From NCBI GenBank assembly GCA_963555985.3, contig OY820591.1:256001-320000 (forward strand): a DNA stretch of 64,000 nucleotides, read 5' to 3'. Position 1 is the stretch's first letter. Every line of letters begins with the position of its first letter. This DNA is from Dehalococcoidia bacterium. GTDB lineage: Bacteria > Chloroflexota > Dehalococcoidia > Bin125. Below are positions 2,521-54,658 of the stretch, piece after piece. The notes under the pieces were generated by a model. The model was given only the letters and a program-made list of their open reading frames with translations. It was not told where the DNA came from and did no database searches. A program made the position numbers and the translations under genes.

Positions 2521-2586
2521 CCGTCATTCCCGCGAAGCCTGCCCCCGCGGAGGCGGGGAGCGGGAATCTCGCCCCAGGGATGACGG
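2521..2586. repeat. CGTC-tagged palindromic repeat with a nested CAGGCT-tailed hairpin
   Basis: CCGTCATTCCCGCGA[AGCCTGCCCCCGCGGAGGCGGGG]AGCGGGAATCTCG directly after the SDR stop codon. Confidence 0.8.
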
Positions 2587-2628
2587 ACTAGATGAGGCTT
2601 CGAGCAGAACCGAAACGAGGAGAATCAG

Positions 2629-3579
2629 ATGAGCACCGAACACACTTCCGCCAGCGATGTCCTGCCCGATCCCGAGACCGTCGAAGTCTCCGACGGCATC
2701 TTCGCCTACATCCAGCACGACGGCTCCTGGTGTCTGAACAACCCCGCCTTTGTCGATGTCGGCGACCAGGTGATCGCGATCGACGCCTGCGCCAATGAGC
2801 GCCGCACCCGCCTCTTCCGGGAAGCGATCGCCGAGGTCTCCAGCAATCCCGTCCGCACCCTGGTCAACACGCATTCGCACATGGATCACACCTACGGCAA
2901 CTGCCTCTTCGCAGACGATGCAGTGATCATCGGACATCGAAATTGCCGCAACGACATCCTGCGCGACGCACCCAATCAGCGCGAGCGCGTCTCGGTCATG
3001 TTCCCCACCGTTGAGTGGGGCGACGTGACGCCGGTCGCGCCGAACGTCGTCTTCGACGACACGATGACCTTGTACGCCGGAGACCTCGAGCTGCAACTGA
3101 TCTACGTCTCGCCGGCCCATACCAACACCGACGCCGTGGTTTGGATTCCCGAGCGCCGGGTGCTGATCGCGGGAGACATCATCTTCAACCAGGGCACGCC
3201 GTTCGCGCTGATGGGTTCGGTCGCCGGTTGGCGGTCGGCGCTGGATCGCCTGAAGGAGTTGCCGATCGAGACCGTCATCGCTGGTCACGGTCCGGTCGCG
3301 GACGCATCCGTGCTCGACGAAGTGGACGCCTATCTGGAATTCGTCCAGCAATCGGCCAAGTCCGCCTTCGACGCAGAGATCGACCCGCTCGAAGCTGCCC
3401 GCGACCTCGACCTCGGACGCTTCGGCGAGTGGACCGATGAAGAGCGAATCGTCGGCAACCTCCACCGCGCCTACAGCGAACTCCGAGGCGAGGAGTGGGG
3501 AGCCGAGATCGATATGGCCACCGCCTTCGGCCAGATGCTCGAATTCAACGGCGGTCAGCCGCTGCGCTGTTTGGCGTAG
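2629..3579 (+). CDS. MBL-fold metallo-hydrolase (cyclase-like)
   Basis: THSHMDHTYGN, PAHT, AGD and GHG motifs. Confidence 0.9.
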   Translation: MSTEHTSASDVLPDPETVEVSDGIFAYIQHDGSWCLNNPAFVDVGDQVIAIDACANERRTRLFREAIAEVSSNPVRTLVNTHSHMDHTYGNCLFADDAVIIGHRNCRNDILRDAPNQRERVSVMFPTVEWGDVTPVAPNVVFDDTMTLYAGDLELQLIYVSPAHTNTDAVVWIPERRVLIAGDIIFNQGTPFALMGSVAGWRSALDRLKELPIETVIAGHGPVADASVLDEVDAYLEFVQQSAKSAFDAEIDPLEAARDLDLGRFGEWTDEERIVGNLHRAYSELRGEEWGAEIDMATAFGQMLEFNGGQPLRCLA

Positions 3580-3631
3580 CGGGCGGCCACCCAGTTTCCG
3601 CTTCACGGAGACCTTTGCGTAAATCAAGGCC

Positions 3632-3916
3632 CGTCATACCCGCGCTTGTCGCGGGTATCTCGCCGTGACCTGCACCGTCGTCGCCGGCACGGCGAGATTG
3701 CGCCCGGTTCAGGCTAGGGGCAGGCTGCAGCGGAGCGCGGCAATGACGGAGAACATCAACTTTCGCAACCGTCTCCGCAAGCGAGAATCCACGTCGCACT
3801 CGAGACGCTGCGTGGATTCCCGCGTTCGGAGGGCTTTGCAAGATTCCCGATCTGAGCGTTTCGTCACTCTTGCGAACGCGAGAATCCACGTCGCACTCGA
3901 TACGCCGCATGGATTT
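3632..3916. repeat. Mosaic of CGTC-tagged (dRS3-like) palindromic repeats upstream of IS30
   Basis: 3632-3750 is closely similar to 52079-52173; 3828-3915 is similar to 6181-6268; GCGAGAATCCACGTCGCACTCGA is directly repeated at 3781 and 3878. Confidence 0.85.
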
Positions 3917-4956
3917 CCTAGTCTCACAGACGAAGTGCGACAGATGATTGAGGTGAGCCCATGGGCGCGCAGTACACGCAGTTGGACCTGGCGGAGCGAT
4001 GCGCGGTTGCCCGCTTACAGGCCGAGGGGCGCTCGATCCGGCAGATCGCTGCAGCTCTGGATCGCTCGCCATCGACGATTGCTCGAGAGCTGAAACGCAA
4101 CACGGCGCGCGACGGCTACCGTCCCGACTACGCCCAGCAACAGGCCCAGGCGCGGCGCTGGCGCGGTTCGCGGCTGGAACGCGACGATCAGCTGCGCGCG
4201 CGGGTGCTGCGCGAGTTGGCCCGCGGGCTCTCGCCGCAACAGGTCGCAGGCCGGCTGGCGCGCGAGGCGGGCGCGCCGGTGATCTCGCACGAGAGCATCT
4301 ATCGCTTCATCTACGCCCAAGCCTCGCGGGCCAAGCCCGGCCGCGGCGGCGGTTGGCGCCAGTATCTGCCGCGGCGCAAGGCGAAACGCGGTTGGCGCGG
4401 GCGCAAAGGCGGCAGTTCGGTCGAGCGCATCCAACTGCGGCGGCCCCTGAGCGAGCGCCCGGCGGCGGCCGCCGGGCGGCTCGAAGCCGGTCACTGGGAG
4501 GCCGACCTGATGCTCTTCGGGCGCGGCGGTCCGCTCCTGCTGATGCTGCACGAGCGCTCCTCGCGGCTGCTCGTGGGCTTGCCCGTGGCGGGCAAGGCGG
4601 CCGCTCCGGTCGCGCGCCTGCTGCTCAGCCTGCTCCGCGCCTGGCCGCCCGCCCTGCGGCGCACGGTCGCGTTCGACAACGGGACCGAGTTCGCCCGCCA
4701 CTACGAACTGCACCGGCTGGGCGTGGAGACCTTCTTCTGCGACCCCTACGCGCCCTGGCAGAAGGGCGGGATCGAGAATGCGATCGGACGCCTGCGCCGG
4801 GTCCTGCCGCGCCGGCTCGACCTCGCCCAACTCAGCCTCGCGCGTTTGATCGAAGTGCTGCAGTTGTACAACAACACCCCCCGCCAGTGCCTCGACTACC
4901 TCTCCCCGGCCGAAGTCTTCGGTCGGCAGTTGTTGCAGTTGCAATGTGAACCCACC
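3917..4956 (+). mobile_element. IS30-family insertion sequence
   Basis: Imperfect 26-bp terminal IRs (3917-3942 CCTAGTCTCACAGACGAAGTGCGACA; 4931-4956 reverse complement GGTGGGTTCACATTGCAACTGCAACA), TT on both flanks, enclosing an IS30 transposase. Confidence 0.8.
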
Positions 4957-4977
4957 TTCCCGCCTACGCGGGAATGA
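3961..4977 (+). CDS. IS30 family transposase
   Basis: N-terminal HTH (SIRQIAAALDRSPSTIARELKRN), ISHESIYRFIY, DDE motifs WEADL / FDNGTEF / PWQKGGIEN. Confidence 0.96.
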   Translation: MGAQYTQLDLAERCAVARLQAEGRSIRQIAAALDRSPSTIARELKRNTARDGYRPDYAQQQAQARRWRGSRLERDDQLRARVLRELARGLSPQQVAGRLAREAGAPVISHESIYRFIYAQASRAKPGRGGGWRQYLPRRKAKRGWRGRKGGSSVERIQLRRPLSERPAAAAGRLEAGHWEADLMLFGRGGPLLLMLHERSSRLLVGLPVAGKAAAPVARLLLSLLRAWPPALRRTVAFDNGTEFARHYELHRLGVETFFCDPYAPWQKGGIENAIGRLRRVLPRRLDLAQLSLARLIEVLQLYNNTPRQCLDYLSPAEVFGRQLLQLQCEPTFPPTRE

Positions 4978-5129
4978 CGGAAATGGAGATTTTGCAAAGG
5001 CCTCCCTGCGCGGGGACAGGCTCTCAAGGGGGAGGTTTGACTGAGAGGATGAGACATGGTGTAGCAGAGAGCGCTGCGGCGTTTTCACCCCCTCTGTCAC
5101 TGCGTGACATCTCCCCCTCAAGGGGGAGA
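4957..5129. repeat. Palindromic repeat mosaic (dRS3-like hairpin, nested CAGGCT hairpin, CCCCCTCTG...GGGGGAGA double hairpin)
   Basis: TTCCCGCCTACGCGGGAATGACGG at 4957; CCCTGCGCGGGGACAGGCT near 5004; CCCCCTCTGTCACTGCGTGACATCTCCCCCTCAAGGGGGAGA at 5088-5129. Confidence 0.85.
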
Positions 5130-5153
5130 TCGATCACGGAGAGGAGATGGGAG

Positions 5154-6005: not shown

Positions 6006-6024
6006 GGGCAGTCCTTTCTGAGTG

Positions 6025-6063: not shown

Positions 6064-6097
6064 GGGGTTGTGTGTCGTGGTTTATGGAGGGGGGAGG

Positions 6098-6417
6098 GAA
6101 CGGATCACGCGATGCGGGTTGGCGGTACGACCAAATGTGGAGATGGCTTCGGACTTGGGTGCTTCGAGATTCCTGCCTACGGAGGCCTTTGCAAGATTCC
6201 CGAGCTGAGCGTTTCGTCATTCTTGCGAACGCGAGAATCTGCATCCCACTCGATACGCCGCATGGATTCCCGCGTTCGCGGGAATGACGGAAATGGGAGT
6301 TTTGCAAAGGTCTTCCTACGCAGGAATGACGGAGATGGGAGTTTTGCAAAGGTCTTCCTACGCAGGAATGACGGAGATGGGGGTTTTGCAAAGGCCTCCC
6401 TACGCAGGAATGACGGA
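6098..6417. repeat. Composite repeat element ending in a 42-bp tandem array
   Basis: 6098-6180 is homologous to ~54503-54585; unit GGAATGACGGARATGGGRGTTTTGCAAAGGYCTYCCTACGCA starts at 6281, 6323 and 6365, with a partial copy at 6407. Confidence 0.85.
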
Positions 6418-6424
6418 ATAGGGC

Positions 6425-7519
6425 TTAGACCGGGATCTTCTCCACCGGTACCGGCATCGGAATCCCCGCCCAGCGGCGTAGATCCTCGCTCAGACGATCC
6501 CGCCGATCCGTCAGATGGCAATGGTCGAGGTAGCCGAGGTAGGTCTCGACCTGACGCTGGCGCAGCGCAGCCACATCCAGCATCGCCTCTTCCGCCTGCT
6601 CGCGGCCCTCTCCCATCAGCACGGCGAGGGCGGAGTAGAGCGTGTCGTCGCGGTCCTTGGCCAGGTACCACTCGGCCTTGTTCAGGTAGCGGTGGATTTC
6701 CTCGCGCCGGATCGGTTCCCTGAGCAGGAGGTAGCGCATGTGGTCGACGAAGTACCTGAGGTGGCGCTCGATGTCTTTGGCGCAGAGCCGGTAGATTTGG
6801 CGTTCGGCCTCGTTCTGGGCGAGGTTCTCGCCTTCTTCGAGCAGCGCGATCAACATCGCGTCGTGCATGATCGAGGCGACCGTGAACTCCGAGAAGGTGT
6901 ACGACTGTGTGAGCGGGAGGAACTTCCAGTTGCGTCCGCCGCGTCCGAGTCCGCCGCCGTTGGAGAGCGCGCGCTTGCGCCAGACCTCGTAGAGCCGCGC
7001 CGCGTCAAACACCACCGTGCCCAGGAACAGCTTGACTTCGATGTAGCCGTAGGAGATCTCCTGGAGCCAGCGCCCCGTCGTCTGCGCCTTGGTCCAGGCG
7101 TACTCGGACATCAGCGTTGCGATCTGGCAGATCGCCCGCTCGATGTCCGAACTCAGCGGTTGCATTGAGGCCCAGTCGATATCGGCCGACGAGTTCCAGC
7201 GGTCGGCGATGGCGTCCTCGTACAGCTCGGCGCAGAGGTCGGACCAGACCTCCGACTTCTCGAAGATCGAGTAGCCCATCTGTTCGGTGCGGGTGTCGGG
7301 GATGGCGCCGCGCGGAATCTCGGTGTTGTTGTCCCAGTGTTCGGGCACCTCGCCGTAGATATCGACATTGAGCAGCCCGAAGCGCAGGCCGCCCGTCTCC
7401 GGCTTCGCCTGGTCCTTGGCCTTGACGCCCCAATGGACCGGAACGTCGAGCCAGTCCGAGGGCAGACCGGACTGCTCCAGCCGAGCTTTGGCGGTGGCGA
7501 CGACTTCGTTGTCGGGCAT
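6425..7519 (-). CDS. Ferritin-like domain protein with degenerate diiron ligands
   Basis: Paralogous to the upstream gene (LYEDAIADRW, KRALSNGGGL, AQNEAERQIY), but the ExxH motifs are replaced by DAARL and DIERH. Confidence 0.8.
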   Translation of the reverse strand: MPDNEVVATAKARLEQSGLPSDWLDVPVHWGVKAKDQAKPETGGLRFGLLNVDIYGEVPEHWDNNTEIPRGAIPDTRTEQMGYSIFEKSEVWSDLCAELYEDAIADRWNSSADIDWASMQPLSSDIERAICQIATLMSEYAWTKAQTTGRWLQEISYGYIEVKLFLGTVVFDAARLYEVWRKRALSNGGGLGRGGRNWKFLPLTQSYTFSEFTVASIMHDAMLIALLEEGENLAQNEAERQIYRLCAKDIERHLRYFVDHMRYLLLREPIRREEIHRYLNKAEWYLAKDRDDTLYSALAVLMGEGREQAEEAMLDVAALRQRQVETYLGYLDHCHLTDRRDRLSEDLRRWAGIPMPVPVEKIPV

Positions 7520-8656: not shown

Positions 8657-8879
8657 GCTGTCCTCCAGAGATGCCCAGGGGGCACCGTCAGCGCGATCTG
8701 TATCGGGCGCAAGCTAGCGGTTTGGGAGCTGGAGCGCAAGCTGCGACCTGCCGACCATCGCTCTCCTGCATTACGGAGGGAAGAACGGGATCGGGTCAAT
8801 GCGACAGTCTCTCTCGGAGAGAGGCGCTAGACTGCCGGATCAAGGTTGCCCGCTCACCGGGCTGGCCGAGGAGACAGGC

Positions 8880-9611
8880 ATGAATTCAGCCGCCGCGCAG
8901 AGGGCACTCGATGGACTCGCACCGGCCTCGCGGCGGCGAGTTGTGCGGAACGGAGCTCCGACGAATGATCTTGTCTTCAGCGCATCCGTCGCAGGAAATG
9001 AGACTGTCTTTCCTCAAATCCTCTCTCTGTACGTGCCAGAGTCAAGCGTGATTGCCGACGTGACGTATGGCGAAGGCGTCTTCTGGCGCAATGTTCCGGA
9101 CGACCAATATGTTGTCCATGGAACTGACATCCAGACCGGAGTCGACTGCCGAGATCTGCCTTACGCGGATGGTGAGATCGACTGTGTTGTCCTGGACCCG
9201 CCATACATGCACTCTCCTGGAGGAACTGCGCACCAGGGGACGCCTTTTGAGCGCCATTACCGAAACAACGGGACCCGCAACACCACGCCGAAGAAGTATC
9301 ACGAAGCAGTTTTATCGCTGTACGAAGACGCAGGTAGAGAGGCGTACAGAGTTCTTCGTGATCGCGGAGTGCTCATAGTCAAGTGTCAGGACGAAGTGTG
9401 TTCAAACCGTCAGCGCTTCACGCACGTAGAGATCATGCAGGCGTACGTCGAGCTCGGGTTTGTGCCTGAGGACCTCTTCGTGGTCGTGAGGAACAACCGC
9501 CCTGGCGTGAGCCGTGCTGTGAGACAAGTCCACGCGCGAAAGAATCACTCGTACTTTCTCGTATTCTGGAAGAAGGGTTCTTCTCGCGGCCGTTGGGAGC
9601 GCCCAGGATGA
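8880..9611 (+). CDS. Small amino (N6A/N4C) DNA methyltransferase
   Basis: SAM-binding [11 protein letters not shown] and catalytic VLDPPY motifs; RBS GAGGAG before ATG 8880. Confidence 0.8.
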
Positions 9612-10111
9612 ACCCTGTGGAATTGTTGGTCGAGATCATTCAGGAACACTCCCCAGAGGACATTTGGCGAGATTCTCCGCTCATTGGCTATCGGATGTTG
9701 GGGAACACGAATCGGGGAGAGATTGGAGAGGAATTCGTCAGGAGATTTCTGGCAGCCCACGGGATCACCGTAGGCAACGGGAGCCGGACATCGCAGACGG
9801 ACCTCCGGATCGAGAGCACCCGTTTCGAGGTAAAAACGGCGTCGCTCGGTGCCACCGGCACTTTCCAATTCAACCATGTGCGACTGGATCGTGCGTACGA
9901 CCTTCTGCTTTGTCTCGGTATCTGTCCACATGATATTGTGTTTAATATGTGGCGTAAAGGTGCGGTTGCTGAAGGACGAGCAGGAAGATTGGTCCGGATG
10001 GCCGAGGGACAGGCCGTGACTTACAAGCTCACGAAGAAACTCGACGACATGAAGAAAATCGCAGAACTTCCCGGAGATGTAATGGAGGCGCTCTCTCAGA
10101 GTGAGCCGTGA
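9608..10111 (+). CDS. Putative PD-(D/E)XK restriction endonuclease
   Basis: GEIGEEF ... TDLRI ... FEVKTA catalytic pattern; ATGA overlap with the MTase. Confidence 0.65.
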
Positions 10112-10206
10112 CTTGGACGTACAGCCATCGTCAGCACGAGTCATCTCAAACTTGGAGGAGTATGTAAGATCTAGAATATTCTAGGAGCGCCTCGGCGTAG
10201 CCAGTG

Positions 10207-13090: not shown

Positions 13091-13122
13091 CCGTCATACC
13101 CGCGCTCGCCGCGAGTATCTCG
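13091..13122. repeat. CGTC-tagged palindromic repeat
   Basis: CCGTCATACCCGCGCTCGCCGCGAGTATCTCG. Confidence 0.75.
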
Positions 13123-13143
13123 TCTGACCGGCATGGAGCCGCA

Positions 13144-13884
13144 ATGCCCACCTTCATTGGCCTCGACCTTGCCTGGACGACCAAGAACGAGAGTGGCATC
13201 TGCTGGCTCGAGGGCGATTCGCGGGACAACCTGCGCTGCACCCGTCTTCACGCCGCAGCCTACGAAACTGCAGCGCTGGCAGATGAAGTCACCGCAGTCG
13301 ACGGACCGGTCGTCGTCACCATTGACGCTCCATTGCTCTACAACGAAGAACGACGCGCCGAAAGCAAGATCGCCAGTAAGTTTGGTCGCTACAAGGCGTC
13401 GGCCTATCACCCTTCGCTGGCCGTCAGGCGTGGATACACGGCCGGCATCGACCTCGGCAAGGCCCTGGAGTCGTCAGGCTTCACGCTGGACCCGGCACAA
13501 CTGTTGCGCGGCCATCGAGCCGGTCGTACGGCAATCGAGGTCTTTCCGCACACGATCCACGTTCGCCTCTTCGGCCTCGACGAACGGATCCTGTACAAGA
13601 AGGGCCGTGTCGCGCAGAAGCGAACCGGACTGCGTCAGTACCAGGGACACCTGGGAGGACTGATTGAGCGAGAGGCGCCCGATCTTCTCGACCACGAAGA
13701 CATCGCCCGCGCCCTGGATCCCGAAACCGCCCGGAACGCCAGGGGCAAAAGCCTCAAACGCCTCGACGACACCCTTGACGGTCTCACCTGCGCACTAGCC
13801 GCCTGGCTGATCTGGAAGGCACCAGACCGCTGGGAGATGATCGGCGACCTCAACGGCTACATCGTCGCGCCGCGTGAACGTTAG
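13144..13884 (+). CDS. DUF429 family predicted RNase H-like nuclease
   Basis: FIGLDLAW, IDAPL, IEVFPH and DDTLDGL motifs; RBS GGAG before ATG 13144. Confidence 0.8.
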   Translation: MPTFIGLDLAWTTKNESGICWLEGDSRDNLRCTRLHAAAYETAALADEVTAVDGPVVVTIDAPLLYNEERRAESKIASKFGRYKASAYHPSLAVRRGYTAGIDLGKALESSGFTLDPAQLLRGHRAGRTAIEVFPHTIHVRLFGLDERILYKKGRVAQKRTGLRQYQGHLGGLIEREAPDLLDHEDIARALDPETARNARGKSLKRLDDTLDGLTCALAAWLIWKAPDRWEMIGDLNGYIVAPRER

Positions 13885-14426: not shown

Positions 14427-14427
14427 G

Positions 14428-19055: not shown

Positions 19056-19218
19056 CCGTCATTCCAGGCTTGACCTGGAATCTCGTCCGGAATTGCGGGC
19101 TCTCTGGTCGGAGCGAGATTCCAGCGTTCGCTGGAATGACGAGAGCAACGGGAATCTGATGTACGCGCAACTCTCCTTGAGGGGGGGAGATGCCGCAGGC
19201 AGAGGGGGTGAGAACGCC
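19056..19218. repeat. Head-to-head CGTC-tagged hairpin pair plus double-hairpin repeat between pstS and pstC
   Basis: CCGTCATTCCAGGCTTGACCTGGAATCTCG ... CGAGATTCCAGCGTTCGCTGGAATGACG; 19172-19218 is close to the reverse complement of 52259-52306. Confidence 0.85.
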
Positions 19219-26749: not shown

Positions 26750-27574
26750 TTACTCCGGCTCGGTCGCAATATCCACCAGCACAAACCGCCGAGGCTGCTG
26801 ATCCCATCTGATGAGACGGTGGGGCGGGTCTACTTCGTACCAGGCTCGGCTGACCTCGACCCCAGGCGTCGCCACTACCTGCCAGGTCACCACATCGCCC
26901 TGCGGCCCGCGCAGCGTGTCCTGCCCGCGCACGGCAACCTGGACCAACTGACTGCGCTGCTGCACGACGTTGACCGAGCGGTAGGTCAGCTCCAAGTCCT
27001 GCTCGAACGCGAGCGAACGCCAGAGCCAAGCGGAGGAGTCGTTGTCGAAGGCGAACTCCCCCGCCTCCACGCGCTCCTCAATCCGCTTCTCGGTCGGCTC
27101 ATCCGTGTCCGCCCCTTCCACCGTCACCATGATCACATCCGCGTAGGTCTCCCCGTCCGCGTTGGCGCCGTACTCGCCGCGCACGCGGATCGTCTCATCG
27201 GCCGCCGCCGCCGACCGCTCATAGCGCAGCGGGCGCAGCGTCTCGGCGTCAACCCAGACCGTCACCTCGTCCCGAACCGGACCTTCCTCACCCTCGAGTT
27301 CGAAGACCAGCCGCAACCGGAATTCATCGCCCTCACGGACGGTCTCCAGCGCCATCGTCCCTAGCTCGGTATCAGTCTGATCGAGCATCGCGTAGGTCAG
27401 CCGCTCGTAGTCGGGCCAGGCGATCTGGGCGACGGGGTTTTCGGGGTCGTCGAAGTCGGTCTCGGAACCGCAGGCGACGAGAAACGTCGTGAGAACGGCG
27501 ACGACGAGGAGAAGGGATCGAGATTCCCGCGACAAGCGCGGGAATGACGGAATGAAGCTGGATGATGCCGCCAT
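26750..27574 (-). CDS. Beta-rich lipoprotein (DUF3108-like)
   Basis: Lipobox LVAC; TGATG coupling to the ltaE stop; signal n-region includes a translated palindromic repeat. Confidence 0.7.
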   Translation of the reverse strand: MAASSSFIPSFPRLSRESRSLLLVVAVLTTFLVACGSETDFDDPENPVAQIAWPDYERLTYAMLDQTDTELGTMALETVREGDEFRLRLVFELEGEEGPVRDEVTVWVDAETLRPLRYERSAAAADETIRVRGEYGANADGETYADVIMVTVEGADTDEPTEKRIEERVEAGEFAFDNDSSAWLWRSLAFEQDLELTYRSVNVVQQRSQLVQVAVRGQDTLRGPQGDVVTWQVVATPGVEVSRAWYEVDPPHRLIRWDQQPRRFVLVDIATEPE

Positions 27575-28650
27575 CACGAATTGGGGCCGATTTCGGCTTC
27601 GGCCATGCGGCGGAGGGCTTCGGCGCAGTCCTCGCTGGTCAGGTCGGCGTGGGTGACCAGCCGAATCTTGGTTCGGTCGGGGGTAGTGACGAGGATGCCG
27701 AGTTGCTTGAGTTGGGCCTGGAGGTTTGGGGATGGCGCGGGATCGCGGGTGGTGTCGAGTTGGACGATGACGATGTTGGTTTCGACGCTCTCGGGATTGA
27801 TGTCGAAGCCCAGTTCCGCCAGACCGCGCGCCAACTGCCGCGCGTTGGCGTGGTCGTCGGCGAGTCGATCCACCATCTCGTCCAATGCCACCAACCCCGC
27901 CGCAGCCAGAATCCCCGCCTGCCGCATCCCGCCGCCGACCAGTTTGCGCGCGCGGTGGGCGGCGCGGATGAATTCGGCGTCGCCGCAGATGAGCGATCCT
28001 ACGGGCGCGCCTAGTCCCTTGGAGAGGCAGAAGCAGACGCTATCGGCGGGGGCTGCGAGTTCGGCGACGGAATGTCCGCTGGCGACGGCGGCGTTGAAGA
28101 TGCGGGCGCCGTCGAGATGGACTCGCAACCCGGCCTCATGCGCGATCGCAGCCAGCGTCTCGGTGCGTTCGAGCGAGAGCACCGTGCCGCCGCAGAAGTT
28201 GTGGGTGTTCTCCAGTGCCAGCAGGGAGGTGCGGGGCTGATGCACATCGTCTGGTCGCACCGCCGCCGCGACTCGATCGGGATCGAGTCCGCCGTCCGGT
28301 TCGTTGGGCAGGATCGTCGCCAGCACGCCGCCGAGCCGCGAGACGCCGCCCTGCTCGGAGCGCACGATGTGGGCGCGGTCGCCTACCAGCAGCTCATCTC
28401 CGGCGCGGGTCTGGGCCAGCAGCGAGACCAGGTTCGCCATCGTGCCGGAGGCGACGTAGAGGGCCGCCTCCTTGCCGGTGCGCTCCGCCGCTGCCCGCTC
28501 CAACTCGGCGATCGTGGGGTCTTCGCCGAACACGTCGTCGCCGACTTCGGCCTCGAAGATCGCCCGCCGCATCGACGCGGTGGGGCGGGTCACAGTGTCG
28601 CTGCGCAGATCGATCAGGGGGCGGTCGATCGCGTCGTTCGAGTCACTCAT
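27574..28650 (-). CDS. ltaE: Low-specificity L-threonine aldolase
   Basis: DLRSDTVT, GDDVFGEDP, LENTHN, HLDGARIFNA, LSKGLGAP and GGGMRQAG motifs. Confidence 0.95.
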   Translation of the reverse strand: MSDSNDAIDRPLIDLRSDTVTRPTASMRRAIFEAEVGDDVFGEDPTIAELERAAAERTGKEAALYVASGTMANLVSLLAQTRAGDELLVGDRAHIVRSEQGGVSRLGGVLATILPNEPDGGLDPDRVAAAVRPDDVHQPRTSLLALENTHNFCGGTVLSLERTETLAAIAHEAGLRVHLDGARIFNAAVASGHSVAELAAPADSVCFCLSKGLGAPVGSLICGDAEFIRAAHRARKLVGGGMRQAGILAAAGLVALDEMVDRLADDHANARQLARGLAELGFDINPESVETNIVIVQLDTTRDPAPSPNLQAQLKQLGILVTTPDRTKIRLVTHADLTSEDCAEALRRMAEAEIGPNS

Positions 28651-32560: not shown

Positions 32561-32604
32561 CTCTCCCCCCGCACCGCGGGGGGAGATGCCGCAGGCAGAG
32601 GGGG
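32561..32604. repeat. CCCCCTCTG...GGGGGAGA double-hairpin repeat (reverse orientation)
   Basis: CTCTCCCCCCGCACCGCGGGGGGAGATGCCGCAGGCAGAGGGGG. Confidence 0.8.
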
Positions 32605-41928: not shown

Positions 41929-41996
41929 CCCCTCTGTCCCCCCGCCTACGCGGGGGCAGGCTCTACGGGACATCTCCCCCGCAGAGGGGGGAGGGG
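41929..41996. repeat. Double-hairpin repeat with a nested CAGGCT-tailed hairpin
   Basis: CCCCTCTGTCC[CCCCGCCTACGCGGGGGCAGGCT]CTACGGGACATCTCCCCCGCAGAGGGGGGAG. Confidence 0.8.
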
Positions 41997-42461: not shown

Positions 42462-42583
42462 GGGGTGTTCCTTTCTGCTGAATCCAGGACTCTTGATCTT
42501 ATATGGATAGATGTTCGGTTTGCAAACTGGTTAGGTGTGTTGTGGTTGTCGTTGGTGGGTTGGGTGCTGGATGTGGCGTTTCA

Positions 42584-42867
42584 CCCCCTCTGCCCCGTTG
42601 GGGCCTCTCCCCCTCAAGGGGGAGATTTTGGGGGAGGTGGGGTTGGGGGTTGGGTGCTGGTCACGGCGAGATACCCGCGGCGGAGCGCGGGTATGACGGA
42701 GTTTGTTGGGGTGGGAATGACGGAGATGGGGATTTCGCAACGGTCTCCGCAGGCGCGAGTCCAGATGCCATTCGAGACGCTGCATGGATTCCCGCGTTCG
42801 CGGGAATGACGGACATAGGGATTTGCACAGGCCTCCCTGTGCGGGGACAGGCTCTTGAGGGGGAGAT
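42584..42867. repeat. Palindromic repeat mosaic
   Basis: Double hairpin at 42584-42625, CGTC hairpins near 42661-42700 and 42786-42812, nested CAGGCT hairpin near 42835. Confidence 0.85.
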
Positions 42868-42888
42868 TTTGGATGGGGGGCGTGGTTG

Positions 42889-44965: not shown

Positions 44966-46429
44966 TTACTGCTCGGAGCCGTCCTGGTTTGCCAGCACGA
45001 ACTCGTCGGTGACGCCGAGCGCTTCGGGGCCGTACTCCTCAAGTGAGAAGTTGGTGCATGAGATCTCGCCGAGCTGGACCCGGCAGGTGTCGTAGCCGTG
45101 TGCGACCCGATGCCATTCGGGGTCCATCGTCAGGGTCGAACTGAGTACTCCGTCGATGGTGATGCCCTCCATCGCTTCGGCGATCGCGGTGGTGTCGTCC
45201 ACCGTGCCGGCCTTCTGCATCGCCGCCACCAGCATGTAGACGTAGTCGTACTGCCAGAGCGTGATGTCGGTCAGCGGGGCGGGTGAGCAGCCGTCGGGGT
45301 TGCCGCATTCGAACTCGTTGACGGCGCGGTAGTGCTCGCGCGAGCGCTCGCTGCTGTTGATGGCGCGGCAGAGGTTGATGCAGGCCAGCACGATCGGGGC
45401 TTCGTTGTCGATCCCGCCGGGGAAGTTCTCTTCCCACCAGCCGGGGTCAACGCCGAAGACCATGTAGCCGCGGGCGACTTCGAGTTCGAGCGCCTGCTCG
45501 GCGATCAGGACCGAGTCGGCCGCGATGTACCAGTTATGCATCCAGTCGGGCTCAAGCCCCTTGAGGCGGGTCAGGAAGGGGGTGAAGTCGGTGGTGCCGG
45601 GCGGGTAGAAGACGACCGGGTGGGTCTTCTGCCCGAGCGCGGTGAGGACGCCGTTGTAGAAGCGTCCGAGGAACTGTCCGGAGGGGTCGTCGGTGGCGAT
45701 GATGACGGAGGTGTCGCCTTCTTCGGCACCGAGCAGTTCGAGCACGCCGGCGGCGGTGATGGTGCTTCGGGTGAGCTCGGAGGGCTCGATCTGGAACAGC
45801 CACTTGTGGGTGGTTTGCGATGTCTCCGGGTTGAGCACGCCATCCTCGGAGGTGAGGATGCTGAGCGACATCAGGTGCAGCACCTGCTCGGGCTGGGTCA
45901 GCTCGGAGGCGGCCAGGCCAATCCCGTGGGGGATGGGGCCGAAGATGATCTTGATGCCTTCGTCGCGGATCAACTCCTGCACCGCCGCGATGCCGACCGC
46001 GTCGTCGGAACGGGTGTCGCGGGCGACGACTTCGATGGTGTAGGTGGTGTCGCCGACGACGAAGCCGCCGGCCTCGTTGATCTGCTGGACGGCGAGCATC
46101 AGCCCAACCTCTTCGGACTTGCCGTAGAAGGCGAGGCCGCCGCCGGAGAGCGGCTGGACGGAGCCGATGCGGACGACGCCGGTCTTGGCTTCGGGTTCTG
46201 CTTGTTGCTGGGCCTGCGGTTGGGGCTGCGGCTGAGCTTGCTGTTGTTGCGCTTGCGGCTGGGCTTGCTGTTCCGCTTGCGGTTGCGCCTGGGCGACCGT
46301 TTGTTGCTCGTCATCATCGTCGCCGCAGGCGGCGAGGACGAAGCCGAGCAGGAGCGCAGTGAGCGCGACGGCGACCATTCCGATCCAACGCCACCGGGGC
46401 AGGCGTGTATCCAACTGCTGGTCGTTCAT
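44966..46429 (-). CDS. ABC substrate-binding lipoprotein (LivJ/K fold) with a Gln-rich tether, second copy
   Basis: LAACGDDDDEQ lipobox; IGSVQPLSG, INEAGG and TTDFTPFL motifs. Confidence 0.88.
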   Translation of the reverse strand: MNDQQLDTRLPRWRWIGMVAVALTALLLGFVLAACGDDDDEQQTVAQAQPQAEQQAQPQAQQQQAQPQPQPQAQQQAEPEAKTGVVRIGSVQPLSGGGLAFYGKSEEVGLMLAVQQINEAGGFVVGDTTYTIEVVARDTRSDDAVGIAAVQELIRDEGIKIIFGPIPHGIGLAASELTQPEQVLHLMSLSILTSEDGVLNPETSQTTHKWLFQIEPSELTRSTITAAGVLELLGAEEGDTSVIIATDDPSGQFLGRFYNGVLTALGQKTHPVVFYPPGTTDFTPFLTRLKGLEPDWMHNWYIAADSVLIAEQALELEVARGYMVFGVDPGWWEENFPGGIDNEAPIVLACINLCRAINSSERSREHYRAVNEFECGNPDGCSPAPLTDITLWQYDYVYMLVAAMQKAGTVDDTTAIAEAMEGITIDGVLSSTLTMDPEWHRVAHGYDTCRVQLGEISCTNFSLEEYGPEALGVTDEFVLANQDGSEQ

Positions 46430-47320: not shown

Positions 47321-47369
47321 CGTGATTCCTACCTCTCGGTCAAGGCCCGGTTGGGGAGTCTGGCTGGGA

Positions 47370-47413
47370 CCCCCTCTGCCTTCGGCAGCTCCCCCCGCAG
47401 TGCGGGGGGAGCT
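47370..47413. repeat. Double-hairpin repeat
   Basis: CCCCCTCTGCCTTCGGCAGCTCCCCCCGCAGTGCGGGGGGAGCT. Confidence 0.75.
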
Positions 47414-47422
47414 GGGAATGCG

Positions 47423-48805: not shown

Positions 48806-49101
48806 GGTGTTCCTTTCGTTCGCCGGCTTCGGCGAGGCTGCTGTCCACCGCTGTGGTGGAGCGCTGCGACTAATGGATGCGTCTCCGTTCGGCTATCGCA
48901 GGCGATCCGATCTGCGCGGACGCCTACTCCAGCGCGTAGCGGCATTCTGCGAATCGCAACATGGGCTGTCAGTACGCGCCATGACAGTGAGGGGCGCTCC
49001 GTTCTCCTCTCTTTTGGAGGTGAGTGGATGGGAAGAGAGGGATGTTGCAGCCGCCTGCACTCGCGCTATCATTCTCGTACGGTTGTGCCGTATCAGTCGA
49101 A

Positions 49102-52023
49102 ATGACCGACGCTTTGCCGACCTCGCTCTCCGCCTCCGAATTCGCCGCCAAGTGGCGCGACAACGCGCGACGTGAGCGCGCCTCCTCTCAGGAGCACTTC
49201 ATCGACCTTTGCCGCCTGCTTGGTCTCCAGACCCCCAACGAAGCCGACCCGGCCGGCGAGTGGTACAGCTTTGAGCGCCGCGTCGACAAGACGCTTGGCG
49301 GCAAGGGCTGGGCTGATGTCTGGAAACGGGGGCACTTCGGCTGGGAGTACAAGGGCGACCACGCCGACCTGAGCGCTGCCTACCGGCAACTGCTTGATTA
49401 CCGCGAAGACCTCGAAAATCCGCCTGCGCTGGTTGTCAGCGATATGGACCGGATCGAGATCCACACCAACTTCACCTACACCCGCCCGACCGTTCACACG
49501 CTGACCCTCGATGACCTCGCCGCCGGCGGCGAAGCGACCGCCGATGCGTTGCGCATTATCCGCGCCGTGATGAGCGACCCGGAGGCGCTGCGACCGCGAC
49601 GCACGCCCGACGAGGTAACTCGGGAGGCGGCCTCGCGCTTCGCCGATCTCGCGCGCGGAATGCAGGAGCGCGGCCACGATCCCGAAGTCGTCGCGCACTT
49701 CCTCAATCGCGTGTTGTTTTGTCTGTTCGCTGAAGACGTCGGCCTGCTGCCCCGGCGCTTGATGACCGACCTGATCGAATCGCGCAAGGACGACCCCGGC
49801 GAGTTCGCCCAGGGACTCGCCGATCTGTTCCGGCTGATGTCCGAGCGTGACGCCGGGCGTTTTTTCGGTACCCAGCGGATCGAGTGGTTCAACGGCGGAC
49901 TGTTCGACGACGACTCGACGCTGGCCTTCACGCGCGACGAACTGCGCACCGTGGCCGAGGCCGCCACGCTCGACTGGTCGCAGGTCGAACCCGCGATCCT
50001 CGGCACGCTCTTCGAGCGCGGACTCGACCCGGCCAAGCGCGGACAACTGGGCGCCCACTACACCGACCGCGAGAAGATCCTGATGGTGGTCGAGCCGGTC
50101 GTGATCATCCCGCTGCGGCGCGAGTTTGCGACGATGCGTGAGCGCGCCGACGGGCTGATGAAGGGCCGCGCCCCCAGCCCGCTCACCCGCGAGGGCAAAC
50201 GCCGCACGCGCCTGCCCCAGTGGGAGCGGAACGCCGAAGCCGAGTGGCGCGGCTTCCTCGAGCGCCTGCGCAACGTGCGCGTGCTCGATCCTGCCTGCGG
50301 CTCGGGCAACTTCCTCTACGTCACCCTGCGCCTGCTCAAAGACCTCGAACACCAAGCGATCCGCTGGGGTGCAGAGCGCCTGCGGATCACCGGCGAATTC
50401 CCCCAAGTTGGCCCACACAACGTGCTGGGGATCGAGATCAATCCCTACGCCAAGGAACTGGCGGGAGTCGCGATCTGGATCGGGCACATTCAGTGGATGC
50501 TCGATCACGGCTACGGATTTCCGCGCGATCCAGTCTTGCAGCCGCTCGACAACATCGAGTTGCGCGACGCGATTCTGGCCTATGACGAGGAGGGGAGTCC
50601 GGTCCTGGCGACGTGGCCGGAGGCGGAATTTGTGGTTGGCAATCCGCCGTTTCTGGGTACGAAACTGATGCGGTTGTCGCTTGGGGATGCGTATGTGGAT
50701 GACTTGTTCACTGCATGGGATGAAGTGGTCGCTCGTGAGTCAGACTTGGCTTGCTACTGGCACGAGCAGGCGCGTCGTCAGATCGTCGCGGACAATTTGA
50801 GCCGCGCAGGATTGCTGGCGACGAACTCCATTCGCGGCGGCGCGAATCGCGCCGTGCTGAACGCTGTCAAGGAGAGCGGCGACATCTTCATGGCGTGGTC
50901 GGACGAGCCCTGGGTAGTTGATGGGGCAGCAGTTCGAGTCTCAATCGTTGCGCAAGACGGCGGCTCCGAAGAGCGCCACGTACTTGATGGCAAGACGGTG
51001 ACTGCGATCAACGCCGATCTGACCGTCGGGATCGATCTGACGCAAGCTCGGGTGCTTGCGGAGAACCAAAGCGTCTGCTTTATGGGCGATACCAAAGGCG
51101 GCGCATTCAACCTAGCGGGCGAAGTGGCTCGTGAGATGTTGCGGGAGCCGACCAACATCAACGGCTGCCCGAACGCCGATGTGGTAGTACCAAGAGTGAA
51201 CGGGTTAGACGTTACGCGCCGGCCTCGGGACGAGTTCGTCATTGATTTCGGCGCGGAGCTCTCCGAATCAGAAGCTGCTGCCTACGAAACGCCGTTTGAG
51301 TACCTGGTTGAGCATGTGCAACCAATTCGATCAAAGAATCGGCGGAAGGCATATCGGGAGCGTTGGTGGTTGCATGTCGAACCTCGTCCAGCGATGCGTG
51401 AAGCCTTAGCCCCGCTTCATCGCTTTATCGCTACACCGGCGGTTGCGAAACACCGGCTGTTCGTCTGGTTGTCAGCCCCGACTCTGCCTGACCATGCCCT
51501 GTTCGTATTCGCCCGCGACGACGACTATGCCTTCGGCGTGCTCCACTCGCGAGCGCATGAGCTCTGGTCGCTGCGCATGGGCACCTGGCTCGGTGTCGGC
51601 AACGATCCCCGCTACACCCCGACCTCTACCTTCGAGACCTTCCCCTTCCCCTGGCCGCTCAACACCCCCGACGACGCGCTGACCGCCGAACAATGCGCTC
51701 AGCGCGACGCGATCGGCAAGGCGGCGCGGGCGCTGGACACTGCCCGCCGGCGTTGGCTCAACCCGCCCGAGTGGGTGCGCGCAGAGGCGGACGTGCTGTC
51801 CTCGCTGCCGCCGCGTCTGTTGCCGGTCAACGAGGACGCGGCTAAGCAGTTGCGTAAGCGCACGCTGACCAATCTGTACAACGCGCGTCCGGCCTGGCTT
51901 GCGAATCTGCATCACGCCCTGGATCTAGCGGTCTTTGCCGCCTACGGCTGGCCGGCGGAGTTGGAGGATGATGAGATCCTGGAGCGGTTGCTGGCGCTCA
52001 ATCTGGAGCGTGCTGGGGATTAG
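49102..52023 (+). CDS. MmeI-like type IIL restriction-modification enzyme
   Basis: Nuclease ADVW...WEYK, GAHYT, motif I VLDPACGSGNF, motif IV GNPPF, C-terminal RYTPTSTFETFPFP and LDLAVFAAYGW. Confidence 0.92.
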   Translation: MTDALPTSLSASEFAAKWRDNARRERASSQEHFIDLCRLLGLQTPNEADPAGEWYSFERRVDKTLGGKGWADVWKRGHFGWEYKGDHADLSAAYRQLLDYREDLENPPALVVSDMDRIEIHTNFTYTRPTVHTLTLDDLAAGGEATADALRIIRAVMSDPEALRPRRTPDEVTREAASRFADLARGMQERGHDPEVVAHFLNRVLFCLFAEDVGLLPRRLMTDLIESRKDDPGEFAQGLADLFRLMSERDAGRFFGTQRIEWFNGGLFDDDSTLAFTRDELRTVAEAATLDWSQVEPAILGTLFERGLDPAKRGQLGAHYTDREKILMVVEPVVIIPLRREFATMRERADGLMKGRAPSPLTREGKRRTRLPQWERNAEAEWRGFLERLRNVRVLDPACGSGNFLYVTLRLLKDLEHQAIRWGAERLRITGEFPQVGPHNVLGIEINPYAKELAGVAIWIGHIQWMLDHGYGFPRDPVLQPLDNIELRDAILAYDEEGSPVLATWPEAEFVVGNPPFLGTKLMRLSLGDAYVDDLFTAWDEVVARESDLACYWHEQARRQIVADNLSRAGLLATNSIRGGANRAVLNAVKESGDIFMAWSDEPWVVDGAAVRVSIVAQDGGSEERHVLDGKTVTAINADLTVGIDLTQARVLAENQSVCFMGDTKGGAFNLAGEVAREMLREPTNINGCPNADVVVPRVNGLDVTRRPRDEFVIDFGAELSESEAAAYETPFEYLVEHVQPIRSKNRRKAYRERWWLHVEPRPAMREALAPLHRFIATPAVAKHRLFVWLSAPTLPDHALFVFARDDDYAFGVLHSRAHELWSLRMGTWLGVGNDPRYTPTSTFETFPFPWPLNTPDDALTAEQCAQRDAIGKAARALDTARRRWLNPPEWVRAEADVLSSLPPRLLPVNEDAAKQLRKRTLTNLYNARPAWLANLHHALDLAVFAAYGWPAELEDDEILERLLALNLERAGD

Positions 52024-52078
52024 GGGGCGTGGTCGTCTCTTCCCCGTTCAAGCCGGGGGTCATCGCCGCGCCCGCTTC

Positions 52079-52346
52079 CGTCATACCCGCGCTTGTCGCG
52101 GGTATCTCGCCGTGATCTGCACCGTCGTCGCTTATACGGCGAGATTGCCGCGACGGAGCGCGGCAATGACGGAGAGAGGGACGCGGGTATGACGGAGAAG
52201 ATCGACTGTTGCACAAGTCTCCTTGAGGGGGTGAGACGTGGGGTATCAGAGGGGGCTGGGCGTTCTCACCCCCTCTGCCTGCGGCATCTCCCCCTCAAGG
52301 GGGAGATCGATTGAGGTTTGTGCGCAAGTCTGCTCAAGGGGGGAGA
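52079..52346. repeat. Palindromic repeat mosaic after the type IIL gene
   Basis: Head-to-head CGTC pair at 52079-52173 matching 3632-3750; double hairpin at 52259-52306. Confidence 0.85.
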
Positions 52347-52358
52347 TTGGATTTGTAG

Positions 52359-54269
52359 ATGGCGTTGCTCGCAGCAGCCTTTGTGGTCGTCTTTGGCTTG
52401 CAGTTGTTGCGGGGCATGGTGGCGGGGCTGTCGGTTTACCTGGGGCAGGTGCGGGATCTTGATCCGCTGCTCCTGGGCGGGCTGATCTTCGCGGTCTTTC
52501 TGGCGGGGTTTGGGGCGCGGTTGGTGCGGCTGCTGCTTGGCGTCGGTTGGGCGTTTCCGATCCTTGCCGCTGTCTTGGCGCTGCTGCGCCTCGCGGAACA
52601 GTTCAGTTCGCAGCCGGACGCTCGGCTCATCATCGAGATCGCCGGAGTCGTGGTTTGGCTCTGGCTTGTACCGCTGGTGCTTGCGGGCGATCACGCGGTC
52701 GGCAAGAGGCGCGATGCGGCTTCGCCGGTTGTGGCGCTGTTGCTCGGGCTCACGTTCGATACGGCGATTAAGGGGGCGTTTGGGACGCTTGATCTGAGCT
52801 TTGCTGCGGGGTTGGCGCCGCAGCTGACGACGGTTGCGCTGACGTGTGCGCAGCTCGGGTTGATCCTGTTGATGGCTCGCACTCGCGCCCAAGCGGAGAG
52901 CGCGATTGCTCTGCCTGCGTCCGCGTATGTGGTTGGGTCCGGGCTTGCGCTGCACCTGCTGATCTTTCAGAACATCGCGCATCATGCGGCGCTGATTGGC
53001 TGGTCGTTGCCGGCGGTGTTCGCCTGGACGCTGGCGGCGAATTTGATTGCGATCTGGGCGGTGGTTTGGTTATCTCGGCGTGCTTCGGGCTTGCCTCGTT
53101 GGGCGTCGGTTGGGGCTGCGGGGTTGCTGGTAGCGAGCGTCGCGCCGGGTCTCTCGCCGGCGTTGGCGGCGATTGCCGCGCTCGTGGGGCCGGTTGCGAT
53201 CGCGGTGCTGTGGACGCCTGCGCTTGCGGGCAGTAGCGGAGATCGGCGCGGGTGGGTTGCGGTTGCGCTGGGATTGTTGGCGATTCCGGTGGTGCTGTTT
53301 GGATGGTACGCGCACTATGAGATTGCGGTTCCGATTCCGCAGTGGCTGATTCCGTTGGTTGCGGGGCTGTTGGTTGCGGGTCCGGTTTGGGTGTGGAGTC
53401 CCCCCTCTGTTCCTTGTTCAAGCCAGGGACAGGCTCCTGCGGGACATCTCCCCCCGCACTACGGGGGGAGAGTGGGGATCGGCGTTGCGGTTGGGGCGAT
53501 CTTGTTGCTCTTGCTGCCTTTGTATCAATTTCTCGCCTGGAATTCGCCTCCTGCGCCTCCCGCTGAGGGTTCTTCGCTGCGGGTGATGACTTACAACATT
53601 CATCAGGGTTTCGACCTCTCCGGGCGGCCCGGGCTCGAAGGCGTTGCCGAGGCGATTGAGGCTGAGCAGGCTCAGATTGTGGGCTTGCAGGAGGTTCCGC
53701 GCGGTTGGGTGGTCAATGGCTCGGTGGATGCGCTGAGTTGGCTCGCGCAGCGGCTGGGGATGCACGCCGCCTGGGGTCCGGCCGCCGATCCGTTCTGGGG
53801 CAACGCGATTCTGAGCCGTTATCCAATCGTGCGGGTTGAGAATGCGCCAATGCCGGACAACGCCGACATCCTCTTCGACCGCGCCTATTTGGTCGTCACG
53901 ATTGAGGTCGGCGGTAAGCAACTTCAGGTCGTTGCGACGCATCTGCACCACGTCCAGCGGGAGCGGCAACACCGCTTGCCTCAGGTTCGGGCGCTGATCG
54001 AGGGCGTTGACTGGAGCCGTCCGACGATCCTGTTGGGCGATCTCAATGCCCAGCCGCAGCACGAGGAATTGCGGCTACTGCTGCGGGCGGGTCTGGCGAC
54101 GAGCGAGCGTCCGATCCCGACGTATCCGTCGGATCGGGCGAGGCGGCAGCTTGACTACGTTCTGGTAACGCCCCACTTCGCACTCAGCGAAGCGACGGCA
54201 ATCCGCACCACTGCCTCGGATCATCGACCGCTGGCGGCGACGCTGATTCGTGTAGAAGCTGCTCAGTGA
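52359..54269 (+). CDS. Polytopic membrane protein fused to an endonuclease/exonuclease/phosphatase domain
   Basis: About 400 aa of TM helices, then MTYNIHQG, LQEV, GNAILSRYP, GDLN, LDY and SDH motifs. Confidence 0.88.
   Translation: MALLAAAFVVVFGLQLLRGMVAGLSVYLGQVRDLDPLLLGGLIFAVFLAGFGARLVRLLLGVGWAFPILAAVLALLRLAEQFSSQPDARLIIEIAGVVVWLWLVPLVLAGDHAVGKRRDAASPVVALLLGLTFDTAIKGAFGTLDLSFAAGLAPQLTTVALTCAQLGLILLMARTRAQAESAIALPASAYVVGSGLALHLLIFQNIAHHAALIGWSLPAVFAWTLAANLIAIWAVVWLSRRASGLPRWASVGAAGLLVASVAPGLSPALAAIAALVGPVAIAVLWTPALAGSSGDRRGWVAVALGLLAIPVVLFGWYAHYEIAVPIPQWLIPLVAGLLVAGPVWVWSPPSVPCSSQGQAPAGHLPPHYGGRVGIGVAVGAILLLLLPLYQFLAWNSPPAPPAEGSSLRVMTYNIHQGFDLSGRPGLEGVAEAIEAEQAQIVGLQEVPRGWVVNGSVDALSWLAQRLGMHAAWGPAADPFWGNAILSRYPIVRVENAPMPDNADILFDRAYLVVTIEVGGKQLQVVATHLHHVQRERQHRLPQVRALIEGVDWSRPTILLGDLNAQPQHEELRLLLRAGLATSERPIPTYPSDRARRQLDYVLVTPHFALSEATAIRTTASDHRPLAATLIRVEAAQ
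53400..53472. repeat. Double-hairpin repeat with nested hairpin, located in frame inside a CDS
   Basis: CCCCCCTCTGTT[CCTTGTTCAAGCCAGGGACAGGCT]CCTGCGGGACATCTCCCCCCGCACTACGGGGGGAGAG. Confidence 0.85.
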
Positions 54270-54276
54270 TACGGAA

Positions 54277-54327
54277 TCACTGTTCCTCGTCGATGATGAT
54301 CACGTTGGCGTCGAGGACGACTCTCAT
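54277..54327 (-). pseudogene. Remnant of a PIN-domain toxin gene
   Basis: Translates to MRVVLDANVIIIDEEQ-stop, matching the PIN N-terminal signature MRVVLD(T/A)NV. Confidence 0.5.
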
Positions 54328-54419
54328 TGCTGTGAGAGGCTGATGCATAACCCCTGAATTGCCTCATTTCCGCCAATCCGACTCAACGAAGCATCCAGTG
54401 CCGACCAGATACGGAGACT

Positions 54420-54658
54420 GGATTCCCGCATTCGGAGGCTCCCTGCCTACGCAGGGACAGGCTTTTGCGAAAGTCCATCCTGGTGCGTTGGGGGCTCGGA
54501 GGAGCGGATCGCGCGATGTGAGGTCGGTGGTACGACCAGATTGAGAGTGGTTTCAGACTTGGTTGCTTCGAGATTCCCGCCTACGCGGGAATGACGGAAA
54601 TGTGGATTTTGCAAAGGTCTTCCTGCGCGGGAATGACGGAATTTGGGATTGCGCGCGG
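54420..54658. repeat. Palindromic repeat mosaic
   Basis: Nested CAGGCT hairpin near 54441; segment homologous to 6098-6180; ATTCCCGCCTACGCGGGAATGACGG near 54573; one copy of the 42-bp unit. Confidence 0.85.

Follow-up and report, generated by a model that had tools for sequence, protein, structure and literature searches.

A CAGGCT-tailed hairpin-like unit nested in other repeats of a Dehalococcoidia genome

How does a block of 18–26 nt come to lie inside several different kinds of repeat in one bacterial genome? The question is raised by a 64,000-nt stretch of a Dehalococcoidia bacterium (Chloroflexota; assembly GCA_963555985.3, contig OY820591.1, positions 256,001 to 320,000), referred to here as the window, in which a short unit ending in the constant tail GGG(G/A)CAGGCT occurs seven times. 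Nested copies of this kind bear on how tagged repetitive extragenic palindromes (REPs) spread, since comparison with their empty paralogues shows what the unit is, how it is oriented and roughly where its target lies. Our verdict is that the feature is real and that its mobility is plausible; the reading we prefer, with confidence about evenly poised, is that the sequence patterns may reflect a discrete single-stranded unit inserted by an enzyme acting in trans.

Seven tailed units and their empty counterparts

Exact matches to the tail, written GGGRCAGGCT, are found at 2536 on the minus strand and at 3717, 5013, 41953, 42844, 53426 and 54454 on the plus strand, and the units that carry them are numbered here as copies 1 to 7. 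A first-pass annotation of the window had claimed seven tailed copies, and the exact tail is present at all seven sites, against 0.42 matches expected (an enrichment of about 17-fold); none of 100 dinucleotide shuffles of the window, which has a G+C content of 65%, reached seven. When one mismatch is allowed the window has 26 matches against 11.1 expected, and none of the 19 additional ones lies within a repeat cluster as judged by eye. Comparison DNA from other genomes held six exact matches in 1.30 Mb; this sample, to which all statements on other loci below refer, comprises the 82 loci listed, almost all of them unrelated, which were retrieved with 10-kb flanks by an anchor pattern for a 42-nt array of the window that was too unspecific.

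Read with the tail to the right, six of the seven units have the form T(C/T)CC...GGG(G/A)CAGGCT and the remaining one reads CCCGG...GGGGCAGGCT, with unit lengths of 20–26 nt. Copies 1, 4 and 7 have the stem-loop core CCC(C/T)GC-CT(A/C)C-GC(G/A)GGG, copies 3 and 5 correspond to this core minus its four-base loop, and copies 2 and 6 represent a form with the loop TTCA(A/G)GC. Between copies there is a compensatory change from C-G to T-A in the stem (CCCCCGC/GCGGGGG versus TCCCTGC/GCAGGGA). Folded as single-stranded DNA, copy 1 forms a 6-bp G+C stem (−10 kcal/mol; 27 of 200 shuffled sequences fold equally well), while 7-bp stems with a CTAC loop are formed by copy 4 (−10 kcal/mol, z −2.4; equalled by 7 of 200 shuffles) and copy 7 (−8.8 kcal/mol, z −2.2; equalled by 6 of 200); copies 3 and 5 fold weakly, copy 6 forms an imperfect stem and no fold is obtained for copy 2. 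The first-pass annotation had described a hairpin of about 23 bp with a varying loop and a constant tail. The length is not fixed at 23 nt and a solid fold is seen in three of the seven units; the constant feature of the unit is its tail and not its hairpin. The unit is best explained as a small tagged stem-loop that belongs to the REP-type family, with a G+C-only stem (T/C)CC..GG(G/A), a loop of 4–7 nt and a fixed, unpaired CAGGCT tail. All seven units are singletons, with no inverted-doublet (REPIN) arrangement. They have no terminal inverted repeats beyond the stem and no fixed target-site duplication (flanking direct repeats of 0–5 nt), which sets them apart from miniature inverted-repeat transposable elements.

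An invariant tail on stems and loops that vary would also be seen if the 10-mer served as a site of protein binding, or of binding or processing within RNA, placed by selection on hairpins downstream of genes with no mobility involved. Six of the seven copies are indeed extragenic, mostly downstream of genes; the exception, copy 6, is in coding sequence, in frame within the open reading frame (ORF) 52359–54269, and scans of the window for Rfam families and tRNAs gave no match. Presence or absence of the entire block in paralogous repeats, as set out below, is moreover unexpected for a motif evolving in place, and we consider a purely functional motif improbable and the least likely of the explanations weighed here.

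Filled sites were compared with paralogous repeats of the window by gap-tolerant global alignment. All seven copies were found within or against another repeat, as had been claimed, and filled and empty forms differ by one block gap of 18–26 nt which always includes the tail. Five host contexts are represented, namely two CGTC-tagged hairpins, the TTTGCAAA palindrome, a CCCTCTG...CTCCCC double hairpin and a degenerate hairpin unit. The hosts with a CCGTCAT head are CGTC-tagged REPs as defined in the sections of Di Nocera et al. drawn on here (PMC3733652).

Copy 1 (2536–2559, minus strand) is a stem-loop with a GCAGGCT tail that lies in the loop of a CGTC-tagged hairpin at 2521–2575 (plus strand). 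This host has the head CCGTCAT and perfect arms TCCCGC/GCGGGA followed by ATCTCGCC, with a 26–28-nt loop holding the unit, and it differs from the empty hairpin at 54569–54600 by a single 22-nt gap, 28 of 29 flanking bases being identical; a second empty hairpin lies at 42780–42815. Copy 2 (3703–3726, plus strand) is degenerate, contains CAGGCT twice and has no stable fold. Its host is a REPIN-like unit of two hairpins at 3632–3754, of which it fills the second; the empty paralogue of this unit at 52079–52171 (both on the plus strand) differs by a single 24-nt gap with 85 of 93 aligned bases identical; the first hairpin of the empty paralogue fits the published pattern of the Ssn recognition motif (SRM). 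The gaps of copies 1 and 2 bear out the earlier claim that the CGTC hairpin is interrupted and that its empty version can be seen at about 52079–52173.

Copies 3 (5003–5022) and 5 (42834–42853), both on the plus strand, are short forms without the 4-nt loop and sit between the TTTGCAAA palindrome and a GGGGGAG half-hairpin. At the empty paralogue of this host (52205–52235, plus strand) TTGCACAAGTCTCC is followed directly by TTGAGGGGG, and alignment of copy 5 to 52170–52245 gives a single 18-nt gap. The composites that hold copies 3 and 5 are identical at 72 of 82 positions, and the two are therefore counted as one event on a duplicated composite. The double hairpin, laid out as CCCTCTG-(small hairpin)-CTCCCC-loop-GGGGGAG, is the host of two further copies on the plus strand. 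Copy 4 (41937–41962; 7-bp stem, CTAC loop) occupies the centre of the double hairpin at 41930–41979, which differs from the empty element at 5087–5130 by a 23-nt gap; copy 6 (53410–53435; imperfect stem, TTCAAGC loop) lies in the in-frame double hairpin at 53403–53453 and differs from the empty element at 47369–47416 by a gap of 26+2 nt. Empty double hairpins are found at 5090–5116, 42586–42612, 47372–47394 and 52271–52293 on the plus strand and at 19184–19206 and 32580–32602 on the minus strand, so that six of eight are empty and two filled, in agreement with the interruptions claimed earlier at 41940 and 53412 and the empty versions at 5088 and 52268. Finally, copy 7 (54440–54463, plus strand; 7-bp stem, CTAC loop) lies in a degenerate hairpin unit for which two empty paralogues were aligned, one at 3816–3858 (plus strand), which differs by a single 22-nt gap, and another near 6168–6200.

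Among perfect-arm CGTC hairpins 12 of 13 are empty and one is filled. As empty hosts form the majority, parsimony makes the filled state the derived one in each host family, and by the same reasoning about five independent entries may have occurred in 64 kb. The predominance of empty hosts speaks against an account in which the modules of mosaic repeats undergo recombination or gene conversion, or are lost between short direct repeats, in the manner of bacterial and Neisseria interspersed mosaic elements (BIMEs and NIMEs), some empty sites being hairpin-stimulated deletions and no independent 22-nt element existing. Such reshuffling does find points of support in the window, as copies 3 and 5 belong to a duplicated composite in which the unit takes the place of a GGAATGACGGA hairpin from the 42-nt array, the direct repeats of 2–5 nt at the junctions (CT, GCT, AGGCT) would favour slippage deletions, and relatives of ORF 52359–54269 keep the flanks of the double hairpin around a different middle, suggesting turnover of its centre. 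One tail shared by five unrelated host contexts must nevertheless have entered them, and a near-identical nested arrangement with a 22-nt difference recurs in a Binatia metagenome-assembled genome (MAG), described below. We regard reshuffling as an unlikely explanation of the whole pattern.

Junctions, polarity and a possible route of entry

The insert ends in the tail in every copy, each unit closing with GGC^T, where the caret marks the junction. At the left, where the units as delimited from sequence start at the T of the T(C/T)CC stem in six of seven cases, copies 1, 3, 5 and 7 have a C^T junction, copies 4 and 6 have G^T and copy 2 has G^C. According to the part of the source drawn on, TnpA-REP of Escherichia coli cuts single-stranded DNA at C^T beside REPs, can join strands and has been proposed as a source of BIME diversity (PMC3333891); junctions of this type are found at four of the seven left ends and at all right ends. 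Direct repeats at the junctions range from none up to AGGCT. On these alignments a consistent block exists, and there is no single target sequence rule. The first-pass annotation had proposed a tiny element and had named the lack of a consistent insertion boundary as grounds for giving it up; such a boundary is seen, to within about ±3 nt, with a discrete block present or absent in five host contexts.

The same arrangement is found in other genomes. Comparison of the window with the 82 loci by blastn gave eight short matches, the useful one being between window positions 2520–2568 and positions 9767–9815 of the Binatia MAG (locus L028; 88% identity). This MAG has two copies in a duplicated segment, at about 6040 and about 9774 (both on the minus strand), in which the left arm of the host is followed by the inner hairpin CCCCGC-TTCC-GCGAGG, its tail ACATGCT and then the loop and right arm of the host, and three empty copies at the same locus differ from the filled ones by exactly 22 nt. 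Two MAGs labelled as Dehalococcoidia (loci L006 and L062) contain three host hairpins with the inner hairpin CCCCGT..ACGGGG and the tail TGACGTTC, at about 10019 and 17763 of L006 (minus strand) and about 16520 of L062 (plus strand); these inner hairpins carry a CGTC tag of their own. In all seven nested hairpins that were read, the inner stem abuts the host left arm, the inner tail points towards the host loop and the orientation is that of the host. The seven are copies 1 and 2 of the window, both cases in L028, which belong to one duplicated segment, both in L006 and the single one in L062, and they amount to about five independent events in four genomes of different lineages. Most exact-arm hairpins of the comparison sample (48 of 68 among the loci listed) have plain loops of 4–8 nt. 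Three repeat motifs of L062 and L006 had no match in the window. Against plasmid sequences, a megablast search with window positions 40000–64000 found only short matches to ABC transporters, and a blastn search with the copy 1 region found four weak and irrelevant ones.

If the unit inserted almost anywhere in single-stranded or intergenic DNA and persisted only where repeat loops and spacers are neutral, nesting would be a product of selection and not of target choice. Repeats make up 24.8% of 6155 nt of intergenic DNA in an automatic check, which finds a repeat-covered flank in five of six intergenic copies, a figure confounded by the clustering of REPs in permissive spacers; purifying selection elsewhere would leave copies concentrated in this fraction just as observed. 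Copy 6, which survives in a variable loop of a protein, fits this safe-haven account, as does the finding that in vitro the loop of hairpins recognised by the nuclease Ssn is dispensable in identity and tolerates extensions, in the part of the study drawn on (PMC11893778). Neutral retention alone, however, would not predict that position and orientation are alike in seven of seven hairpin hosts from four genomes, and we rate it as a minor possibility.

The preferred reading, of a discrete unit inserted in trans, can be put as a sequence of steps. A nuclease or transposase whose gene lies elsewhere in the genome would insert the unit into its hosts while the DNA is single-stranded; where the host hairpin is extruded, entry would usually occur at the 5′ edge of its loop and in the orientation of the host, and the unit would persist because hairpin loops tolerate extra DNA. 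Candidate enzymes would be a Y1 HUH enzyme resembling the tyrosine transposases associated with REPs (RAYTs), a GIY-YIG enzyme resembling Ssn, or another. Ssn is a site-specific single-strand DNA nuclease of the GIY-YIG type, and its recognition motif consists of CGTC hairpins with oriented flanks (Chenal et al. 2025; PMC11893778); here this describes the hosts and not the tailed unit. In the same source, as far as drawn on, ssn genes are often flanked by the motif, and a motif–gene–motif unit is hypothesised to have once been mobile.

Several observations weigh against this reading. Y1-transposase (Y1_Tnp) and GIY-YIG domains are absent from the 103 window ORFs scanned (54, 12 and 37), as the first-pass annotation had anticipated in finding no mobiliser here; no unit has a GTAG tag 5′ of its palindrome, GTAG occurring only as the complement of the CTAC loop; and the published SRM pattern matches none of the seven. 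Neither known enzyme partner is thus implied, and a RAYT-type HUH transposase, as had been suggested for the unit, would be one candidate among others. The fold is weak or absent in four of the seven units, solid stems of 6–7 bp being confined to copies 1, 4 and 7. The copies were observed in 64 kb of the source genome and their empty sites are paralogues, not alleles or orthologues, for which reason the boundaries are good to about ±3 nt only. In the best alignment of copies 3 and 5 a part of what looks like their stem, TC or TCC, falls to the host, and that of copy 6 places it within the left arm of its host and away from the edge of the loop. Insertion by one C^T rule was rejected as general, as it fits copies 1, 3, 5 and 7 and fails for copies 2, 4 and 6 under the best alignments. 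Independent events are few, about five in the window and three to four in the other loci. The CAGGCT tail also resembles the GAGGCC found beside the TTTGCAAA palindrome (copy 7 compared with 6160–6215), by which some sites could be due to module reshuffling and not to independent insertion.

A stronger form of the proposal holds that a hairpin element of about 22 nt is a true parasite of repeats, one that would transpose specifically into the 5′ loop edge of extruded REP hairpins, Ssn recognition hairpins among them, with related hairpins doing likewise in other phyla (the Binatia MAG and the Dehalococcoidia-labelled MAGs). This we consider doubtful. If it were true, pairs of filled and empty sites would expose the long-sought mechanism by which CGTC-type repeats, which have no known transposase, are propagated. 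If the rule of position and orientation proves true of whole genomes and of several phyla, other hairpin repeats would be landing specifically in hairpin loops, and the build-up of mosaic clusters would be explained; if it fails, what we describe is the ordinary repeat clutter of a repeat-rich Chloroflexota genome.

The repeat mosaic and its genes

The tailed unit is best explained as one part of an interspersed-repeat mosaic whose other modules are Ssn-type hairpins, the TTTGCAAA palindrome and the C5/G5 double hairpin. REPs interleaved with other short motifs, as in BIME and NIME mosaics, form clusters at 3630–3950, 4950–5135, 6160–6425, 42580–42870, 52040–52350 and 54400–54660. Seven window hairpins, of the CGTC type that serves as host, match the published degenerate SRM pattern, where 0.53 would be expected from 30 simulated sequences, and the stem core CCCGC-CTAC-GCGGG is common to the tailed unit and the CGTC hairpins of the window. 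A tandem array at 6265–6438 (plus strand) is built of 42-nt units, each a hairpin with a GGAATGACGGA tail and a TTTTGCAAAGG spacer, and at copies 3 and 5 the place that the last hairpin would have is taken by the tailed unit. CGTC-tailed hairpins with the TTTTGCAAAGG spacer are also present at 4955–5005, 42714–42837 and 54572–54664, and are reminiscent of the mosaic intergenic arrays of Neisseria. REPIN-like doublets, consisting of inverted CGTC hairpins with a spacer of 20–40 nt, are found at 3632–3754, 52079–52171 and 19060–19145. The hairpin CCCCG-TTCAAGC-CGGGG at 52042–52060 is free-standing and has the loop of copies 2 and 6 with a different tail, GTCATCGCC. Hairpins also adjoin genes: one with the SRM pattern (27519–27549, minus strand) marks the 5′ end of ORF 26750–27577, which encodes a DUF3108 protein, or falls just within it, and a CGTC-type hairpin at 13093–13125 precedes the start of a DUF429 protein (6e-12; 13144–13884) by about 50 nt.

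The genes of the window are those of an ordinary chromosome, with ABC transporters, luciferase-like oxidoreductases, a two-component system and an MmeI-type restriction enzyme, and the nearest relatives of one window protein, with up to 65% identity, are annotated as proteins of Chloroflexi/Chloroflexota MAGs. ORF 52359–54269, which contains copy 6, encodes an intact membrane protein of 636 amino acids with an endonuclease/exonuclease/phosphatase domain. Its repeat, at 53396–53475, is in frame, and the double hairpin with the tailed unit encodes about 27 residues of a variable protein loop; relatives with about 64% identity keep the repeat-like flanks SPSV...HLPPSRER around a middle that differs, and others lack about 15 residues there. 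The only transposase-like ORF of the window is IS30-like (3961–4977, in the region 3926–4977), with an HTH_38 domain (3.5e-15) and a weak rve match (3.4e-4). It is flanked by a truncated repeat unit on one side and a CGTC hairpin on the other and has the look of an insertion in a hairpin cluster, its ends having been read by eye, and no terminal inverted repeats were detected for it. The MmeI-type restriction-modification enzyme (999 amino acids; 49024–52023) has its 3′ end against the repeat cluster at 52040–52350, and a region of lower G+C content (0.61) at 8657–10206 contains an N6/N4 DNA methylase ORF that stands alone, together with an ORF lacking annotation. Imperfect short tandem repeats at 46187–46291 and 63549–63680 are located at the starts of two genes for solute-binding proteins, both on the minus strand.

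Comparison with known repeat systems

Within the open-access literature, the only literature covered, we found no description of a nested tailed mini-unit or of a follow-up on Ssn and nested hairpins; searches with the repeat strings returned primer coincidences only, and no paper was found on short peptides encoded by such repeats. The closest known relatives are the CGTC REPs, which are equal to the NTS/SRM hairpins that Ssn recognises. CGTC REPs are the dRS3 repeats of Neisseria, which in the sections drawn on are apparently without a dedicated transposase (Di Nocera et al. 2013; PMC3733652), and their tag may read TGTC, CCTC being allowed as well (section 6 of the same paper). Read head first the tailed unit begins AGCCTG(T/C)CCC, with TGTC in four of seven copies and TGCC in three. 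It resembles these repeats in being mostly intergenic and clustered with other repeats, and in its plan of a short, G+C-rich stem-loop, solid in three of the seven copies, one end of which carries a conserved tag that stays unpaired. Unlike them it has no A-T pairs at the base of the stem, with which the 8–9-bp stem of the SRM begins, it does not have the conserved 3′ tail of CGTC hairpins, and it is nested in other repeats and not free-standing or arranged in head-to-head dimers.

Nesting as such has been seen before and is less new than had been assumed. REPs inside other palindromes were reported for GTAG-23 of Thermomicrobium roseum, a member of the Chloroflexi, in CCGSSCC(n3,4)GGSSCGG, for GTAG-15 of A. 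variabilis and for CGTC-1 of H. neapolitanus (PMC3733652, section 7), an association that the authors did not study further in the part of the paper drawn on. As here, a tagged REP lies within a small palindrome, one case is from the same phylum and empty targets exist; those families, in that part of the paper, have one dedicated target palindrome each, whereas here there are five host types, including other tagged REPs. With the BIMEs of E. coli and their TnpA-REP (a RAYT) and with the NIMEs of Neisseria the window shares a mosaic of hairpins and linkers with tandem amplification, represented here by the 42-nt array. The modules of BIMEs, however, are juxtaposed in alternating orientation and not nested, and GTAG-tagged REPs are required by RAYTs.

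Insertion sequences that target REPs were reportedly treated by Tobes and Pareja in 2006. Those named in the material drawn on are the IS110-family element ISPpu9 and others. They too are mobile elements that use REP hairpins as insertion sites, and the IS30-like ORF of the window likewise lies in a repeat cluster; as described there they are autonomous elements of 1–2 kb, in contrast to a non-coding insert of about 22 nt. Tagged REPs and their mosaic clusters, REPs lying in frame and insertion sequences directed at REPs are already known. What appears to be new is a single tailed mini-unit that occupies several types of host repeat, other tagged REPs among them, together with the nesting of hairpins at fixed polarity in the loops of CGTC hairpins from distant lineages.

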